IMG/VR virus record: IMGVR_UViG_3300012983_000032
Span: 1 to 29,792 of that record
Length of the DNA stretch: 29,792 bases
Reading direction: 5' to 3' (one strand)
DNA from: a virus
Lineage: Duplodnaviria > Heunggongvirae > Uroviricota > Caudoviricetes
In this document: piece by piece, positions 1 to 8,490 of the stretch
How positions within the stretch are numbered: position 1 is the stretch's first letter
Layout: each line of letters begins with the position of its first letter
The notes under the pieces: generated by a model
The model's input: the letters and a program-made list of their open reading frames with translations, nothing else
What the model was told of the DNA's origin: nothing
Databases searched by the model: none
Program-made: the position numbers and the translations under genes

Positions 1-1104
1 ATGAAAGAAGTTTCTTCTACATCATTACAACAAACTAGAAGGGATTGTGATAATGCTTTTATAAACTTTTTCAAATCAAATAATGGAAGTAGAAAAGGAA
101 AATCTGGATTTCCAAAGTTTAAATCTAAAAAAGACAATCACCAAAGTTATAGAGAACCAAATGTAAACGAAAATTGCAAGATTTTCTTTGAAAATCGTTT
201 AATTAAAATTCCAAAAGTAGGAAAAGTAATTTTCAAAGATAGGGATTTCCCTCAATGGTGGAGTCAAATAGAAAAGATTTGTTCAATGACAATTTCTAAA
301 AGTTGTAGTGGAAATTATTATGTATCAATTTTGTTTGAAATATCACCTTGTAATTACAGGGTTGAGAATAGAAAAGAGGCAATAGGGCTGGATTTTAGTC
401 CATCTGAAATGTATGTTTCTAGTGAAAACCAAACTGGAAAAGACTTCGGATATATTGCTCAAAAACAAGCCCATTCTAAAAAACTTAAAAAACTTCAAAG
501 AAGACTTGCTAGAAGGCAAATGGTGGCAGTTGAAAACTGCCCTATAAAAGTTTCTTCTAAAAATAGAGAGAAAGCGAGAATCAAACTGGCTCGGTTGGAA
601 GAACATATTGCAAATTCTAGAAAAGACTGGATTGAAAAGGAAAGTTTAAGACTAGTTCGTTCTTATGACAAAGTTGTAGTTGAAGACTTAAACTTGAAAG
701 GGATTTCAAAATTCTTGAGAAATGCCAAAAATATGAATGATACTTCTTGGTCAACATTTGTTTCAAGACTTCAAGCAAAAGGAAAAGATTACAACTGCAA
801 TGTAATCAAAGCAGATAGATATTTTCCATCTAGTCAACTTTGCTCTAAATGTGGATTTCAATATCACGATTTGAAACTTTCAGAGAGAAATTGGACTTGT
901 TGTAATTGTGGAACACATCACATTAGGGATGTGAATGCTGCAATCAATTTGAAAAATTATGTACCGTGGGAAGCACGGGAACTTAAGCCTGTGGAGAGTT
1001 CTAAGGTTGCAAACTTAGCAATGCTTGCTTTGCAAGCAACCGAACTCGATGAAGCAGGAAGCACTTTACAGGCGACTAAGTGCAAGAATCTGCCGAATCT
1101 TTAG
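1..1104 (+). CDS. tnpB: TnpB RNA-guided endonuclease (IS200/IS605 family), 5' part outside window (element A)
   Basis: RuvC motifs intact (IGLDFS, VVVEDL, RDVNAAIN), Zn finger CSKCG...CCNCG, roughly 90% identical by eye to the 6043-7413 protein. The Met at position 1 is internal by comparison with that copy. Confidence 0.95.
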   Translation: MKEVSSTSLQQTRRDCDNAFINFFKSNNGSRKGKSGFPKFKSKKDNHQSYREPNVNENCKIFFENRLIKIPKVGKVIFKDRDFPQWWSQIEKICSMTISKSCSGNYYVSILFEISPCNYRVENRKEAIGLDFSPSEMYVSSENQTGKDFGYIAQKQAHSKKLKKLQRRLARRQMVAVENCPIKVSSKNREKARIKLARLEEHIANSRKDWIEKESLRLVRSYDKVVVEDLNLKGISKFLRNAKNMNDTSWSTFVSRLQAKGKDYNCNVIKADRYFPSSQLCSKCGFQYHDLKLSERNWTCCNCGTHHIRDVNAAINLKNYVPWEARELKPVESSKVANLAMLALQATELDEAGSTLQATKCKNLPNL

Positions 1105-1121
1105 TTCGGCAGAGGCTTCAA
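1..1121 (+). mobile_element. IS200/IS605 (IS1341-like) element A, right part; right end TTCAA at 1117-1121
   Basis: GAAT (1086-1089) at the foot of subterminal hairpin TCTGCCGAA-tctttag-TTCGGCAGA (1089-1113), then GGCTTCAA. Similarity to element B stops exactly after TTCAA. Matches the IS608 right-end pattern (guide GAAT, cleavage site TCAA). Confidence 0.9.
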
Positions 1122-1141
1122 AAATTGAGAATATTGAGATG
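961..1141 (+). ncRNA. Predicted omegaRNA of element A (scaffold about 961-1121, guide about 1122-1141 AAATTGAGAATATTGAGATG)
   Basis: Overlaps the tnpB 3' end as known for TnpB omegaRNAs. Three stems covary with element B. The 5' boundary is approximate. Confidence 0.75.
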
Positions 1142-1193
1142 AATTTGGATTTAATTTTAGCTTTAAAGCCTTATTACTAATTGTATTAGACAT
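1122..1193 (-). pseudogene. tnpB: N-terminal fragment of a third tnpB (element C), MSNTISNKALKLKLNPNSSQYSQF, cut by element A
   Basis: ATG at 1193 with AAGGA RBS. Aligns with HKSLKLRIYPTEEQSQL of tnpB in element B. The leader is homologous to that of element B and equally long between the conserved CTAAACA and ATGTCT. Too short for the ORF track. Confidence 0.8.
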
Positions 1194-1222
1194 AATCAAA
1201 ACTATTCCTTTTGGTTGTGTTT

Positions 1223-1259
1223 AGAAGAAAGTCAGTATTTGCAGTACTGGCTTTTTTCG
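1223..1259. terminator. Bidirectional terminator-like hairpin inside the element C left end
   Basis: AAGAAA-GTCAGTAT-ttgca-GTACTGGC-TTTTTT; stem covaries with the copy at 7451-7470. Confidence 0.7.
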
Positions 1260-1297
1260 TTTATATAGTAATTAGTTGTTTTAAATCAAAAAGAACT

Positions 1298-1312
1298 GTT
1301 AATATAGTAATT
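1298..1312 (+). promoter_or_regulatory. Outward-facing GTTAATATA promoter-like motif in element C left end
   Basis: Same motif as at 7527 and upstream of several phage genes; resembles an extended -10 (TG-n-TAATAT). Confidence 0.5.
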
Positions 1313-1421
1313 ATGGCAATTCATATGCCACACTGAAGATGTGGCATTTTTCTTGCCATTTTTACATAAATGTACGTATTAAATTTATAAAGTTTCTTTT
1401 AGAGTATAAGGAAAAATTAGT

Positions 1422-1847
1422 ATGATAACAACTTTATTGGGAATATTGTTTATTGTGGTAGGTGTATATATTTGTATGAATAGTGGAAGGTCAGTTTTCT
1501 CAATTCTTAAAGAGTGTAAATCACTTAAAAGACAGTACCTATCTGCATTAGACGAATTGGCAAATAGAATCGAGTATGTAACTAATCATATCCCGGAAAA
1601 TGAAATGGAACAAATTCGTTTTTTGAAAATATCTGACGTTATTCAGAATAAAGAAAATAAGGCTATGTTAATATTAAAATTGTATAGTCTTTCTGACGCC
1701 ATTAGAATAGATAAAAAAAAGACACAGAAAAAAATTTGGTTTGACTACTACCCAATTAAGTTATTCTATTTCAAATATGGGAAGGCTCTGAAAGAAATAC
1801 CTGAATTACAAAAGGAGATACCTGAAAAAGATGTCATTTATGAATAA
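1422..1847 (+). CDS. Hypothetical membrane-anchored protein
   Basis: 141 aa ORF, AAGGA RBS, hydrophobic N-terminal helix (TTLLGILFIVVGVYICM). Confidence 0.7.
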   Translation: MITTLLGILFIVVGVYICMNSGRSVFSILKECKSLKRQYLSALDELANRIEYVTNHIPENEMEQIRFLKISDVIQNKENKAMLILKLYSLSDAIRIDKKKTQKKIWFDYYPIKLFYFKYGKALKEIPELQKEIPEKDVIYE

Positions 1848-3696
1848 GATTTATAGGGACACTGTTAGGTCACCTACTATTAATAATCCAATTACTAATA
1901 ATCCAATTACTTACAATTCTTCAGGTGATAATTTTGATATGGATAATTGGAGAATAGAAGCAATAAATCCTTGGATAAATATGGTATCAAATAATATGAA
2001 AATTGATAAACTTGACGACTATCAGATGAATTTTGAGGGCGTTAGTAATAATGCTACTCCTAAAACATCAAAAAAGGTTAAATTAAACATTACTCGTGAT
2101 ACTATCGCACTTTCTTTGGAAGTTTCCAAGAGAAGCGGTGTACCAGTATTATTTCTTTCAAATCCTGGTGAAGGTAAAACCACTGGGGTTATGACTTTCG
2201 GTAAGTATCATAAACTTCACGTTGAATTCCTTATGGGGTCACAATACACACAAGAAGACGTATTGGGATTTATGACAAATACTGGTAAAGAATATCTTGA
2301 AGTTAAAATTCCTGAGTGGTATTATCGTATTATGGAATATACAAAATATCATTGGGAAATTAAAGACGACCCAAATTTTGAATTAGGGTATACAGAACGT
2401 AAAAAACTTATAGATGAAAAAAAATTATATTTTGCATACAAAGATAAAAAATTGACAGAAGAACAACTCCTTGATATGGATATCCCTTTTAACAAAATTG
2501 ATATTGATGCAAGAGTTAAGGAAATTGATAAAGAACTTGAGGACAGATTTGTTTGGACTCCACCAAGAGGAACAATCCTATTTTTGGATGAACTTTCTGC
2601 CGCTGCACCTACAGTACAGGCTGCATTACTTAGGCTTTGTCATGAAAAGAAATTGAGAGGTAATAATTCTCTTCCAAAAGATTGTATTGTATGTGCAGCA
2701 GGTAACTTTAAAAGAAACTTACCTAGTTTTATGGAGATTATTGCACCAGAGTTAAATCGTTTCTGTATAATAAACTTACTTAGAGGTAATCATAATTCTA
2801 GATATGAAAATATCGGAAAAGATTTAGTTTTTGAGGCAACCCAAGACTTTTATGAAAATACTAATAATTTCCCAGAGTATAAAGACACTTTTGAGTTTTC
2901 TCAGTCTATGAAAACTAAGTTTTTAGAAAAGTATCGTAATGGTCTTATTAAATTATTTGAAGAATATTCTAAAACTGACTCTCCAAATGGAGTTTTGAAC
3001 CTAAGAAATACAAATTTTGACGGAATGTTTGATGGACTAGAAGAAGTTCCAGAAATTTCAAACTTCATATCTGTAAGAAGTATTTCTTATTTTGCAAGAG
3101 TACTACGTGCCCTTTGTGAACTTAGGATAACACCTTCATACCTTGATGACGCATATAAGAAATTTTCAGTAGGGCTTTTAGGACTTGGAACAAACTCTTG
3201 GGATAGTAAAGCGGACGATAGAGAATTACAGATTTCAACATATCAGAAGTCATTAAACTTTATGGTAGGTGATATCTTGTCAGAGTTTAATCATCCGTCT
3301 AAGGATAGTATTACTTTAAGTAATATGTCACATGGAGCCGCAACTAAAGCAGAAATTAAAAAGGGTTCATTAGCAGAAACTATTAATAATTTCATAAATG
3401 GTGATAATAAAGACATACAAGATATATTTAATAAAATTCAACAAAGGTTCCCTACTCACGCTGTATCTGCGTATAATGCAATGCAGACTGTTTTTTCTGG
3501 TCCTCTTTTAGATATTATCGACTGGCGAGCAGACTATGAGGCAGTAAAAATGTTGATAATGGTATTAGATAGTAATGTAGATAAAGAATACTTAGATATT
3601 TATACTAATAGTCTGAAAACAGTTTGTAATAATTACGAGTTTTATTATAATAGTAGTTTGGCATCTATAACTTTAAATGACTTAAAAGAGGTATAA
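1831..3696 (+). CDS. MoxR-like AAA+ ATPase
   Basis: Walker A SNPGEGKT, Walker B ILFLDELS followed by AAPTVQAALLRL, then AAGN and APELNRF; adjacent vWA gene. Exact start uncertain. Confidence 0.85.
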   Translation: MSFMNKIYRDTVRSPTINNPITNNPITYNSSGDNFDMDNWRIEAINPWINMVSNNMKIDKLDDYQMNFEGVSNNATPKTSKKVKLNITRDTIALSLEVSKRSGVPVLFLSNPGEGKTTGVMTFGKYHKLHVEFLMGSQYTQEDVLGFMTNTGKEYLEVKIPEWYYRIMEYTKYHWEIKDDPNFELGYTERKKLIDEKKLYFAYKDKKLTEEQLLDMDIPFNKIDIDARVKEIDKELEDRFVWTPPRGTILFLDELSAAAPTVQAALLRLCHEKKLRGNNSLPKDCIVCAAGNFKRNLPSFMEIIAPELNRFCIINLLRGNHNSRYENIGKDLVFEATQDFYENTNNFPEYKDTFEFSQSMKTKFLEKYRNGLIKLFEEYSKTDSPNGVLNLRNTNFDGMFDGLEEVPEISNFISVRSISYFARVLRALCELRITPSYLDDAYKKFSVGLLGLGTNSWDSKADDRELQISTYQKSLNFMVGDILSEFNHPSKDSITLSNMSHGAATKAEIKKGSLAETINNFINGDNKDIQDIFNKIQQRFPTHAVSAYNAMQTVFSGPLLDIIDWRADYEAVKMLIMVLDSNVDKEYLDIYTNSLKTVCNNYEFYYNSSLASITLNDLKEV

Positions 3697-3697
3697 T

Positions 3698-3949
3698 ATG
3701 CTTTATAATGTTTTATCACAAATTGAAAATACTGACGCAATTCTTAAAGGCTTAGACGAATATGAGTGGTTACAATATCATACTAAGGATAAAATTTTTG
3801 TGAAAAACTTAGTACCCATACCTTATGACAAAATAAAAGGAATTTTTGTACCTTTAACTTCTGAGGATAAGAATAATAATAAGACTGTAATGCTTACAGC
3901 TTTAACTGTAAAAGGATTCCAAAATTATATCGCTAAGTTAGAATCATGA
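3698..3949 (+). CDS. Hypothetical protein
   Basis: 83 aa, GAGG RBS, tightly coupled between the AAA+ and vWA genes. Confidence 0.7.
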   Translation: MLYNVLSQIENTDAILKGLDEYEWLQYHTKDKIFVKNLVPIPYDKIKGIFVPLTSEDKNNNKTVMLTALTVKGFQNYIAKLES

Positions 3950-5520
3950 CCAAAGAAGAAGTATTTGAAAAATTTAATGACACTATTTCTCATATACCTA
4001 ATATAAACTGGGTAAACTATGACACACAGATGGCAAAACTTGATACGTACTGTTGGAGATATATTCATTCAGATAATACGTCGTCTAAAAATTTAGCATA
4101 TATGTGTCGTAGTAAAGGGGAAACAGGAGTATACGAACTTTTTATTAATAAACTTATCCCTTTTGATATTAAAAATGCAACTGTTCTTCACGAAGTAGGT
4201 CACGCCGTTTTAGGTCATACTCTTTCTTGGAAAGCACAACAAGCAATAGGTATAGATAAAGTAAAAAGTCATTGGTCAACATTAAAAAATTATTTTAATA
4301 AAAAAGGTAAACCTATAAAATCCCCAACAGAAGAAATCTGTAAAAAGATTTATAATATGATATTAAACGTTGCTATGGACTTTGAAGTTAATAGTAAAAT
4401 GTTTGAACCTTTAGAATATAAATGGGCTCGTTTATTTTTCAATTTTGCATATATCTCTGTTATTCTACAAAATGACGAAAAAATTAAAAATGAAGAACTT
4501 GAAGATGTATTTAACTTTTTACAGGCACTTGACACTTTTAATGGGAATATAGACTTTTCTGCTGAAACTTTCCCTGAGTGGATTATGCCTTTCTGTTGGG
4601 CAGAAGATTATGGATTCCCAGATAGATTGTCTTATGGGCAATATATTGATTTAATTTTAATGAACCCTGATAAGTTCTTCCCAGAATTTAAAGATAAAGT
4701 TGGCAAAAAAGGATTTGATTTTACTGACGGCAATGATACTGACTCCATTAGTGAAGAAGAAATTGACGAGTTTATTACACAATATGGAGACTCCGACGAA
4801 GAAGAAATGGAAGTCCTAATGGATGACGAAAAAAAAGGTAAATATTCTTCACACGCAGATGGTGATAAAAAGTATGTAGAGTCCTCAGATTTTAGTAAAC
4901 TTGACCAAACAGAACTTGAAAATTTCTTATACAAGAATTGTTTTAATAAAAGTATAAAAGACACAAGAACTGACTATCTGTATAACTATAATAGATGTAA
5001 GTTTGGGGGAGATATACTAATCTCTAAACAAAATAAAGAAGAATTATGGCGACCAGGAAATATATTTTTATTGGTAGACTGTTCAGGCTCTATTGAAGAT
5101 ATTGTTATTGATATAGTGTTAAAAAGTGTTCCAAATGTTAGCAGAAAATGTGGTCCAAAATCTAGAGTTATTTGGTGGGATACTACCTGTCGAGGTGATT
5201 ACCCAATGTCAACTAGTAGAGTACCAAATAACTATGGTGGGGGTACAGAAATTGCACTTGGAATAGAATATATCAAAAAGAATTATTTACAATTTAATAA
5301 TGATAAACTTATAATCCTAAGTGATTATTATGATGATATTTCAAGTTGGTTAAGTGAAGTTTCAGACATAAAGTGTGATGTAATTGGTATATGTTGGGCA
5401 CAAAATAAATATGGTAAAGGAAGAGATTTTTTATACCATAGAGGATGGTATAATGACTCCAAGTCTACTATAGACACATTCTTAGATAAAGTTAAGACCA
5501 AATTTATAAGTATCGATTAA
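3946..5520 (+). CDS. Metallopeptidase-motif plus vWA domain protein (DUF2201-like), MoxR partner
   Basis: HEVGH (HExxH), NVAMDFEVN, acidic linker, MIDAS-like LLVDCSGSI and GGGTEI. Confidence 0.85.
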   Translation: MTKEEVFEKFNDTISHIPNINWVNYDTQMAKLDTYCWRYIHSDNTSSKNLAYMCRSKGETGVYELFINKLIPFDIKNATVLHEVGHAVLGHTLSWKAQQAIGIDKVKSHWSTLKNYFNKKGKPIKSPTEEICKKIYNMILNVAMDFEVNSKMFEPLEYKWARLFFNFAYISVILQNDEKIKNEELEDVFNFLQALDTFNGNIDFSAETFPEWIMPFCWAEDYGFPDRLSYGQYIDLILMNPDKFFPEFKDKVGKKGFDFTDGNDTDSISEEEIDEFITQYGDSDEEEMEVLMDDEKKGKYSSHADGDKKYVESSDFSKLDQTELENFLYKNCFNKSIKDTRTDYLYNYNRCKFGGDILISKQNKEELWRPGNIFLLVDCSGSIEDIVIDIVLKSVPNVSRKCGPKSRVIWWDTTCRGDYPMSTSRVPNNYGGGTEIALGIEYIKKNYLQFNNDKLIILSDYYDDISSWLSEVSDIKCDVIGICWAQNKYGKGRDFLYHRGWYNDSKSTIDTFLDKVKTKFISID

Positions 5521-5539
5521 TGGAGTTAATATATTAGGT

Positions 5540-6010
5540 ATGAAGTTATTAGGATTTTGTGATTGGTATTCAGAAATAGTAGACTACAAAGGTAAGCAAT
5601 TTGAAGTTCATTCTTTCTCAAAAGAATACGATATACTTAAGAAAAATGAAGAATGCAAAATTACCGCCGAAAAGCTTGAAGTAACAAGAATTAACGCATG
5701 GAAATTACTTGAAAAAGTCTTTCTCGAAAAAGGCTGGAAATTCCCAGGTAATGAGTATCAGGACTATCTTATACCTGTAATATTGGACGACGAGGGTATT
5801 ACTTGGAAAATATGTATCAGTCAAAGGTCTTGGGGTAATTTTATATATTTTCTAGAGTGCAAAAGAAAAGGTATTGAACCAAATGATGAAATGGGGTATA
5901 TGGATTGGTATATTCAGTATGGAAAAAACTATAATGAAAAGCCTAAATATCCTAAAAAAAATTGGATGTTAACAACCGTAAAATATGAAAGTGTAAACGA
6001 GGATATATGA
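5540..6010 (+). CDS. Hypothetical protein
   Basis: 156 aa ORF; GTTAATATA motif at 5525. Confidence 0.75.
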   Translation: MKLLGFCDWYSEIVDYKGKQFEVHSFSKEYDILKKNEECKITAEKLEVTRINAWKLLEKVFLEKGWKFPGNEYQDYLIPVILDDEGITWKICISQRSWGNFIYFLECKRKGIEPNDEMGYMDWYIQYGKNYNEKPKYPKKNWMLTTVKYESVNEDI

Positions 6011-6186
6011 TAGAAGTTAATATTGTTGAAGCCTGTCCTCGGCTAAAGACCGAGGACATTCCTACCACTAGTCGCCTGTGAGTGGTTTCCTGCTTCATCG
6101 AGTTCGGTTGCTTGCAAAGCAAGCATTGCTAAGTTTGCAACCTTAGAACTCTCCACAGGCTTAAGTTCCCGACCTTCCATCGGTAC
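6006..6186 (-). ncRNA. Predicted omegaRNA of element B (scaffold about 6186-6026, guide CAATATTAACTTCTATCATA)
   Basis: Homologous to the element A 3' region with compensatory stems. The guide is the flank after TTCAA. 5' boundary approximate. Confidence 0.75.
6007..6025 (+). pseudogene. Original first codons (MIEVNI-) of the gene interrupted by element B
   Basis: GAGGA RBS at 5999-6003, ATGA overlap with the upstream stop. Joining 6025 to 7595 gives in-frame MIEVNIDKRRPLTEFNLDN. Confidence 0.85.
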
Positions 6187-7413
6187 ATAGTTTTTCAAAT
6201 TGATTGCCGCATTTACATCACGAATGTGATGTGTTCCACAATTACGACAAGTCCAATTTCTCTCTGAAAGTTTCAAATCGTGATATTGAAATCCACATTT
6301 AGAGCAAAGTTGACTAGATGGAAAATATCTATCTGATTTGATTACGTTACAGTTGTAATCTTTTCCTTTTGATTGAAGTCTTGAAACAAATGTTGACCAA
6401 GAAGTGTCATTCATATTTTTGGCATTTCTTAGAAACTTGCTTATTCCTTTTAGGTTTAAGTCTTCAACTACAACTTTGTCATAAGAACGAACTAATCTTA
6501 AAGTTTCTTTCTCAATCCAATCCTTTCTGCTATTGACAATATGTTCTTCCAATCGAGCCAGCTTGGTTCTCGCTTTTTCTCGATTTTTAGAAGAAACTTT
6601 TCTAGAGCAGTTTTCAACTGCCACCATTTGTTTTCTAGCAAATCTTTTTTGAAGTTTTTTCAATTTTTTAGAATGAGCTTGTTTTTGAGCAATATATCCG
6701 AAATCCTTTCCAGTTTGGTTTTCACTAGAAACGTACATTTCAGATGGACTAAAATCCAATCCTATTGCTTCTTTTCTATTTTCAACCTTATAATTACAAG
6801 GTGATATTTTAAACAAAATTGATACATAATAATTTCCACTACAACTTTTAGAAATTGTCATTGAACATAATTTTTCTATTTGACCCCACCATTTAGGAAA
6901 AGCCCTATCTTTGAAAGTCACTTTTCCTACTTTTGGAATTTTTATTAAACGACTTTCAAAGAAAATTTTGCAATTTTCATTTACATTTGGTTCTCTATAT
7001 GATTGACGATTATCTTTTTTTGATTTAAACTTTGGAAATCCAGACTTTCCTTTTCTACTTCCATTATTTGATTTGAAAAAGTTTATAAAAGCTTGGTCAC
7101 AGTCTCTTCTAGATTGTTGTAAACTTGTTGAAGAAACTTCTTTCATATATGGATAAATTTCTTTCCACTCTTTTTCTGTTTTAGGCTTAAAGTTTTTATA
7201 GATATCTTTTGATTTTATTTCTCTTTCTTCTTTTGGGATAGGTAGAAGGTTATCGATGTAAAATTCGTTTCTTTCTTGCAAATGTTCATTGTATAGTTTT
7301 CTACAACAACCAAAAGTTTGATTTATGAGTTGAGACTGTTCTTCTGTAGGGTAAATTCTTAATTTAAGAGATTTATGTTGAATTATATAATTTTTGACTA
7401 ATTTATCAGACAT
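6043..7413 (-). CDS. tnpB: TnpB RNA-guided endonuclease, full length
   Basis: N-terminal KSLKLRIYPTEEQ..TFGCCRKLYN, intact RuvC D/E/D, Zn finger CSKCG...CRNCG. ATG 7413 with AAGGG RBS is preferred over TTG 7419. Confidence 0.96.
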   Translation of the reverse strand: MSDKLVKNYIIQHKSLKLRIYPTEEQSQLINQTFGCCRKLYNEHLQERNEFYIDNLLPIPKEEREIKSKDIYKNFKPKTEKEWKEIYPYMKEVSSTSLQQSRRDCDQAFINFFKSNNGSRKGKSGFPKFKSKKDNRQSYREPNVNENCKIFFESRLIKIPKVGKVTFKDRAFPKWWGQIEKLCSMTISKSCSGNYYVSILFKISPCNYKVENRKEAIGLDFSPSEMYVSSENQTGKDFGYIAQKQAHSKKLKKLQKRFARKQMVAVENCSRKVSSKNREKARTKLARLEEHIVNSRKDWIEKETLRLVRSYDKVVVEDLNLKGISKFLRNAKNMNDTSWSTFVSRLQSKGKDYNCNVIKSDRYFPSSQLCSKCGFQYHDLKLSERNWTCRNCGTHHIRDVNAAINLKNYVPMEGRELKPVESSKVANLAMLALQATELDEAGNHSQATSGRNVLGL

Positions 7414-7442
7414 TCGCAATACTACCCTTATTGTGTTTGTTT

Positions 7443-7478
7443 AGAAGAAAGCTAGGATTGCCGTCCTGGCTTTTTTCG
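7443..7478. terminator. Bidirectional terminator-like hairpin in element B left end
   Basis: AAGAAA-GCTAGGAT-tgcc-GTCCTGGC-TTTTTT; covaries with 1231-1251. Confidence 0.7.
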
Positions 7479-7526
7479 TTTCTATATAATTAGTTAGTAT
7501 AATTTAAAAAGACTCAAGTTTATATA

Positions 7527-7541
7527 GTTAATATAGTAATT
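7527..7541 (+). promoter_or_regulatory. Outward-facing GTTAATATA promoter-like motif in element B left end
   Basis: GTTAATATAGTAATT is conserved with element C and points into the interrupted gene. Confidence 0.5.
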
Positions 7542-7569
7542 ATGGCAATTCATATGCCACTCTAAAGAA

Positions 7570-8490
7570 GTGGCATTTTTCTTGCCATTTTTCTATAAAA
7601 GAAGACCTTTAACAGAATTTAATCTTGATAATATTAAAGAAGGTATAACTTTTATTCATAATGAGAATAAAGTTAAATTATTTGTAACCAACGGTTATAT
7701 TGATATTAAACCTAACCCAACTTCTGACTGGTGGAACGTTAATGCCTTTGATAAGTATTCAGACGAAATTTTAGGAGTTCTTAAAAAAGAGCTTTACAAA
7801 AATCCAAAAATTGTAAAAGTAGCTGAATCCCTTGGTAGTGGTGAAAAAGAATATTGGTACTTTGACACAGAACATAATAATTTATTTTATATCGATGACA
7901 AAGGTAAGTTACATTATCATACTGCAAAAGATAATATCTCATATGAACTTAAATTAGAAAGTGCATATGATAGGTTTCATATAAATCGTGAAATAATTAC
8001 TGAAGATTACCAACTTACCCCAGACGACCTTGAAGAATTAAAGGACACAGGCCTTGACCTTGAAATATTTAGAGTACATTTTATCCGCAAGTATAAAGGT
8101 CAATACAAGAATCGTGATATGGTTCGTTACCTTAAGTCTGACTTTATTTATAAGTACAAGTTCTTTTTCAAGTGTAAAAGATGTGGTAAAGAAACATTCC
8201 ATTGGCACAAACATATTCCTGGCGCAATGGTAGACTATTTTGGGCCATATTATTGTGAAGACTGTAAAGAAATTGCAGAGAAAGAAAAAAAGGAAGAGTA
8301 TGACAGAAAATACAATTTCGACCCGGAATTTAGAAAACAGGAAGACGAATTAAAAGAGTTTGCTAAAAGTATTAATATTATAAATGTACGTCCTCAAACG
8401 ACTTTTTCAAAACTATTTGAAGAAAGACCAATGGAACCACCAAGGGATGAACTATTTGCTACACATGAATTAAGATTCTGCAAGAATTAA
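7570..8490 (+). CDS. Body of the interrupted phage gene (CxxC...CxxC zinc-binding hypothetical protein); 7570-7594 is element-derived
   Basis: CKRC and CEDC motifs. Native sequence resumes at 7595. The only start upstream of the junction in this frame is GTG 7570, inside the element. Confidence 0.8.
   Translation: MAFFLPFFYKRRPLTEFNLDNIKEGITFIHNENKVKLFVTNGYIDIKPNPTSDWWNVNAFDKYSDEILGVLKKELYKNPKIVKVAESLGSGEKEYWYFDTEHNNLFYIDDKGKLHYHTAKDNISYELKLESAYDRFHINREIITEDYQLTPDDLEELKDTGLDLEIFRVHFIRKYKGQYKNRDMVRYLKSDFIYKYKFFFKCKRCGKETFHWHKHIPGAMVDYFGPYYCEDCKEIAEKEKKEEYDRKYNFDPEFRKQEDELKEFAKSINIINVRPQTTFSKLFEERPMEPPRDELFATHELRFCKN

Follow-up and report, generated by a model that had tools for sequence, protein, structure and literature searches.

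A TnpB element apparently nested in a sister tnpB gene of a large phage, with a guide predicted to match intact copies of that gene

TnpB nucleases of IS200/IS605-type elements take their guide from the flank of the transposon's right end, and their target-adjacent motif (TAM) is also the target of the transposase (PMC13565253). The persistence of TnpB is attributed to cutting at the vacated site of its own transposon, which becomes gene drive when the transposon sits in another, multicopy mobile element. TnpB homing and gene drive have been described (PMC13565253; bioRxiv 10.1101/2025.02.20.638934), and the literature already covers restorative as well as non-restorative homing and the general idea that nested mobile elements act as drivers. 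The homing endonucleases of T-even phages cause marker exclusion in co-infection (reviewed in PMC13565253 and PMC2988022). In this study, we describe a locus in which one TnpB element, element A, appears to be nested in the tnpB gene of a sister element, element C, and in which the flank that would specify the guide of A is the antisense of that gene. The locus lies at the start of the window, the first 29,792 nucleotides (nt) of the linear IMG/VR virus record IMGVR_UViG_3300012983_000032 (219,523 nt; GC 31.8%; completeness about 70% by CheckV estimate). Its host is a large gut or rumen phage. No TnpB element with a guide directed at a sister tnpB gene turned up in a literature search. The mechanism is already known; the configuration is unusual and, judged by its parts, apparently still functional.

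The right end of A reads ...GGCTTCAA, with TTCAA at 1117-1121 and 1121 as its last base, and the 20 nt that follow are AAATTGAGAATATTGAGATG. On the opposite strand, the start codon of tnpB C lies at 1193-1191, and its 24 codons, encoding MSNTISNKALKLKLNPNSSQYSQF, finish precisely at 1122; the reading frame then enters A for six codons before a stop. An earlier, sequence-only reading of this DNA had described the flank of A as the antisense of a 24-codon tnpB N-terminus with its own ribosome-binding site (RBS), leader, left end and preceding TTTAT, and direct reading confirmed all of these coordinates (Table 1). The C fragment sits upstream of a large-phage gene.

The same reading had predicted that an uninterrupted C allele, TTTAT followed by the full guide sequence, should exist elsewhere, and such alleles were found. 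A scan of JGI metagenome contigs for a 20-mer of the C fragment gave five C-family matches; two more were obtained through protein look-ups. The intact C genes encode 428-441 amino acids (aa), begin with the same 24 residues, and continue with I-K-F-F-G-C-E-R-F, so that they read ...SQF-I-K-FFGC. This is the SQF-I-K junction expected if A was inserted 3' of TTTAT in tnpB C. TTTAT with a 20/20 guide match is present on the A strand in six independent contigs (L018, L020, L022, L025, L055 and L056), whose flanks are identical to the window from 1122 onward for 21-30 nt. In these alleles the C sequence after TTTAT equals, to the nucleotide, the sequence after the right end of A. Given the base composition, the chance of a TTTAT directly beside the breakpoint in intact alleles is about 0.5% per position. 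We consider it probable that A entered tnpB C by TTTAT-directed, IS200/IS605-type insertion at a neutral site, and that A thereby became specific for the A-free C allele. The insertion was most probably routine, directed by TTTAT, and persisted because landing in C, a selfish and dispensable element, does no harm.

Under this interpretation, a Y1 TnpA transposase supplied in trans would have inserted A in antisense orientation directly 3' of a TTTAT that, in tnpB C, is made up by codons Ile25 and Lys26 (ATA AAx). The DNA beside the right end of A would then be transcribed as the guide of the omega-RNA, and the ribonucleoprotein (RNP) of A would recognize TTTAT followed by C codons 18-24 in antisense, a sequence carried by any A-free copy of that C allele. 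As would follow from the established TnpB mechanism, the RNP would re-cut the C gene restored after excision of A and so favor retention of A. By the same mechanism, it may also cut A-free C in a co-infecting phage, which would lead either to repair from the interrupted copy (C::A), as in homing or gene drive, or to plain genome damage.

The record begins inside A: window position 1 is base 1 of the record and a contig end within tnpB A, so the 5' part and the left junction of A are absent from it. The full gene was recovered from sequence L032, which is 100% identical to window 1-6102, reaches 310 nt beyond the window start, and ends 43 nt upstream of the ATG of A, within its left end. The complete tnpB A (L032:44-1414) encodes 456 aa with a B-like N-terminus, where B is a second, complete element in the window. 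The Pfam domains of TnpB are present in A and B, and the genes called in L032 carry HTH_OrfB, OrfB_IS605 (RuvC) and zinc-ribbon/TNB domains. In the TnpBs of A, B, members of the C family and a further element, D, the catalytic D/E/D residues of RuvC and the zinc finger (CxxC...CxxC) are kept. The A protein is homologous over its whole length to ISDra2 TnpB (structures 8h1j and 8exa; E about 1e-47). Within the 3' part of the gene, positions 988-1060 match RAGATH-18 (RF03064; E=5e-4) below the gathering threshold, and B was likewise matched below the gathering score. The 3' 160 nt fold into a conserved structure with 44 predicted pairs; compensatory changes occur at 14 of them across the six elements compared. 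A terminal hairpin occupies 1090-1112, and the tnpB stop codon (the open reading frame (ORF) ends at 1104) lies in its loop. The exact A protein is also encoded on a contig of 50-200 kb. By these predicted features A is a non-autonomous IS200/IS605-type TnpB element with a left end, a 456-aa RuvC nuclease gene, an overlapping omega-RNA scaffold and a TTCAA right end.

Table 1. Features of the nested locus and tnpB genes of the record (positions are those of the window; element D lies outside it)
Feature	Position	Strand	Basis or remark
tnpB of element A, 3' 367 codons	1..1104	+	OrfB_IS605 and Cas12f1-like_TNB domains; record begins within gene
3' part of A omega-RNA (reRNA, right-end element RNA) scaffold and right end	960..1121	+	RAGATH-18 match, conserved fold, homology stop at TTCAA
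Flank specifying the A guide, antisense of tnpB C codons 18-24	1122-1141	+	20/20 plus TTTAT in six intact C alleles
tnpB C, first 24 codons, cut by A right end	1122..1193	-	24/24 aa identical to intact C proteins
Complete element C left end and leader (172 nt)	1194..1365	-	Nested hairpins, terminator-like stem, RBS; C fragment 86-94% nt identical to left ends of intact C-family elements and of B
TTTAT TAM at which C itself inserted	1366..1370	-	TTTAT before left ends at about a dozen independent sites
Element B, complete sister of A (90% nt, 91% aa)	6026..7594	-	In 5' end of phage gene, after TTTAT 7599-7595
TTTAT inside tnpB B, homologous to A site in C (SQ[L/F]-I-[N/K])	7322..7326	+	Adjoining 20 nt match A guide 12/20
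tnpB A	1-1101	+	tblastn match to TnpB B
tnpB B	7419-6046	-	tblastn with TnpB B
tnpB D	43406-42051 (outside window)	-	46-48% aa identity

The behavior of the family at other sites is consistent with this assignment. Deletion of 6026-7594, the whole of element B, gives back one open frame in the interrupted phage gene, which indicates that the insertion was seamless and made no target duplication. Eight IMG/VR loci encode 54-78% relatives of B. Their left ends all follow TTTAT plus 2 nt and their right ends finish at TTCAA, beyond which homology among the eight elements stops and the flanks are unrelated. TTTAT precedes the left ends at the independent sites of B, C, L009, L010, L011, L016, L020, L022, L025, L031 and L056. 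The same holds for three autonomous elements (L059, L060 and L061) in the sister large-phage records G001 and G002, in which a 142-aa Y1 tnpA overlaps a tnpB of 398-405 aa. These elements share the TTTAT TAM and the left-end layout of A, B and C, and their right ends read ...GTTCAA; they show that a matching transposase is present in this phage gene pool. Hairpins are found at both left and right ends of family elements (the left-end fold is predicted). C and A proteins are only about 42-44% identical, and the TAM and end architecture are common to both. Taken together, the ends, TAM, domains and scaffold place A, B and C in an IS200/IS605 TnpB family whose TAM is TTTAT.

Several observations weigh against the insertion interpretation or against an active role of A, and the first of them concern the junctions. 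The left junction, where the rest of C, TTTAT and the left end of A should meet, lies beyond the reach of the record and of L032, and all assemblies break within A or its left end. An exact-pattern scan of IMG/VR with the predicted left-junction 18-mer returned chance matches only, and scans with a 27-mer and a 20-mer of C returned 0 matches. A left junction out of reach and breaks within A are what would be expected if the A-C junction arose from inversion, deletion, illegitimate recombination or misassembly, with no remainder of C beyond A. Three near-identical assemblies of this phage from other samples (L033, L034 and L037) differ from the window almost only by clustered single-nucleotide polymorphisms in tnpB A (compared over window 148-1015) at their contig ends. 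These probably arose through gene conversion between copies of tnpB or through chimeric ends caused by repeats, and the latter would favor an artifact. We nevertheless regard an origin other than transposition as highly improbable: both breakpoints fall to the nucleotide on TnpA cleavage positions, after TTCAA and after TTTAT, and the 45-nt junction, which joins unique sequence, recurs unchanged in five assemblies from different samples (four from ENA, one from JGI). These assemblies were retrieved by exact-protein look-up of the neighboring 141-aa ORF, and their agreement at the junction argues against misassembly.

Two further accounts of the locus were also considered and rejected. Trimming of the record at a called gene start (an in-frame ATG) is ruled out because L032 runs on for 310 nt with an intact A and the other assemblies break elsewhere in A. 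The C fragment is not the inverted 5' end of A itself, since the N-terminus of A in L032 resembles that of B and not that of C. Among truncated C proteins examined as the missing remainder of C, P0039, P0067 and P0091 are frameshifted and P0116 is 5'-deleted; none adjoins A. The far end of the 219-kb record was also inspected, and no tnpB was found there; the tblastn search with TnpB B returned three TnpB genes in the record, those of A, B and D.

A second group of adverse observations concerns the target site. The closest relatives of the window's C left end (L031 and Logan contigs from runs X25 and X3) are F-L-K alleles (TTC CTA/TTA AAA), which have no TTTAT and are mismatched at guide position 1. 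Thus, the presence of TTTAT in this phage's C before the insertion is inferred and not observed. In favor of the insertion, codon 24 of C in the window is TTT, as in the TAM-bearing alleles; in the TAM-less alleles it is TTC. The Logan contigs represent relatives and not this phage, and are of use only for intact C-like alleles. Among 28 close C cluster representatives, 20 have L-K and six have I-K, and most C relatives are without the TAM. The claim of the sequence-only reading that A sits at a conserved tnpB codon was not borne out: ATA-AAx is not strongly conserved, the same position is TTTAA in A itself, and D has no TAM there. Its description of B held, in that B carries the homologous TTTAT and its mismatches to the A guide include positions 1 and 3. 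With these seed mismatches and the partial match, B would be predicted to escape A.

The remaining adverse observations concern activity. No Y1 TnpA is present in the 219-kb record. In addition, the C promoter would transcribe antisense across the guide of A, and this might interfere with it. Both would fit an inert fossil, in which the nesting is real, A is no longer expressed or active, and the match between guide and target has no consequence. We find this unlikely. The ORF of A is complete with its catalytic residues present, and all scaffold pairs are kept. Moreover, with 10% nucleotide divergence between them, A and B both retain open frames and compensatory stems, which points to selection for function. 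If A were inactive, the locus would be an ordinary nested insertion only.

The C family is large, with 3,179 proteins at E<1e-30 on contigs of up to 361 kb, and the flanks of L020, L025, L031, L051 and L056 encode homologues of this phage's proteins, including a flagellin like the one beside D. This indicates that intact C targets occur in related large phages, at different insertion sites. A search of about 185,000 representative genomes in GTDB revealed no exact TAM plus guide; only C relatives of 43-46% identity were found, with no close member. Because C lies at many loci in related large phages and is apparently absent from those bacterial genomes, an RNA-guided cut could copy A into C wherever C lies. 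A might in this way use C as a portable homing site, with a TnpA-independent cut at an I-K allele in co-infection copying A into C anywhere, and with the common F-L-K as drive-resistance alleles; it would then be a gene drive carried by a second transposon. We offer this extension tentatively and think it has a small, though real, chance of being correct. No second C::A locus was found, and so nothing points to past homing; this too weighs on the negative side.

The sequence-only reading had gone further and proposed RNA-guided competition between TnpB elements. What stood is that exact targets exist in related phages; competition was over-reading. No observation marks the insertion as a weapon favored by selection, as opposed to a side effect of TTTAT targeting into a neutral site. 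In its strongest form, A would be an evolved inter-element or inter-phage weapon, kept in C since cutting intact C or its carrier phages gives a selective advantage. Besides the exact targets in related large phages, the apparently intact nuclease and scaffold of A could be cited for it, as could the precedents of phage homing endonucleases that exclude competitors and of a plasmid-protecting TnpB (PMC13565253; 10.1101/2025.02.20.638934). The TAM-less L-K state common in the C family could represent resistance alleles; however, L-K may be the ancestral majority state, since the family consensus near this position is Leu. The case stands alone, an intact C element offers only six TTTAT sites, and the nested form was not found at other C loci. 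Five other distinct insertion sites of the A/B family and that of B itself were inspected, and none is in a tnpB gene. Nothing sets such a weapon apart from neutral nesting, and we judge it distinctly unlikely. Homing or gene drive into C copies is better established as a framing than competition (PMC13565253; bioRxiv 10.1101/2025.02.20.638934), and TTTAT-directed insertion into a neutral site remains our preferred explanation.

Some further observations concern C and the family as a whole. C-type TnpB is abundant in gut and rumen metagenomes on phage-like contigs (L020, L031, L051, L055 and L056; P0011, P0018, P0037, P0060 and P0100), and may be a largely phage-resident lineage. The intact C element of L020 contains six TTTAT sites in 1,540 nt (3.9/kb) versus 9.7/kb in the whole record; the TAM may thus be depleted inside the C element. 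Right-end hairpin types (window 1090-1112 and 6035-6057) cross family lines despite a TnpB identity of about 42%: the A stem CTGCCGAA/TTCGGCAG is identical to that of C-family L020 and L055, and the B stem GTCCTCGG/CCGAGGAC is likewise the same as in L010 and in L022 of the C family. The pattern suggests that co-resident elements have swapped end modules, or that shared TnpAs constrain the ends. The left end of B provides an outward GTG (7570) in frame with the interrupted phage gene, and the ORF 7570-8490 stays open; the equivalent GTG in the left end of C (1341) meets a stop at 1381-1383. L011 and L012 are the same element in two IMG/VR phage records with identical left flanks and different right flanks, which points to rearrangement or recombination at the right end. 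Outside the window, positions 67823-67907 of the record (minus strand) hold a solo right-end remnant, the leftover of a further element, with the last 17 or so TnpB codons, a degenerate terminal hairpin and ...GTATTCA. Window 1-4000 had no match among GenBank phages, and no sequencing run contained over half of the words sampled from the locus.

The locus offers an example from nature, its parts apparently intact, of a TnpB element whose empty site is the coding sequence of a sister TnpB that circulates in related large phages. Exact TAM-plus-guide targets and TAM-less variants are both natural. The locus may serve as a concrete, inexpensive test system, with one nuclease, one guide and three natural target alleles, for the question of RNA-guided homing between transposons or co-infecting phages.

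Compared with known systems, A, B and C resemble the IS200/IS605 elements of the ISDra2/IS608 type in their single-strand-type ends with subterminal hairpins and in insertion 3' of a 5-nt TAM without duplication (for homing, see PMC13565253). They also share the TCAA right end, the guide taken from the right-end flank, and a RuvC D/E/D nuclease that is homologous over its full length. The TAM itself is different, TTTAT in A, B and C as opposed to TTGAT in ISDra2 and TTAC in IS608. Unlike elements of the ISDra2/IS608 type, A, B and C have no TnpA and reside in a large phage, and for A the targeted empty site belongs to the coding region of a different TnpB element and not to host DNA. Another likeness is the gene drive of IS605 elements in multicopy or conjugative plasmids (Mears et al., bioRxiv 10.1101/2025.02.20.638934), in which a nested insertion sequence is reprogrammed to cut its insertion-free carrier, and inheritance is biased without TnpA. 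In contrast to the plasmid, the carrier of A is a transposon found at different loci in different phages, and any drive by A is a prediction. The free-standing and intron-encoded homing endonucleases of T-even phages are alike in that a phage nuclease targets the nuclease-free allele of a co-infecting relative, with conversion or exclusion as the result (PMC13565253; PMC2988022). Unlike these endonucleases, A would use a guide RNA and a TAM, and its target lies in a mobile element instead of a conserved phage gene.

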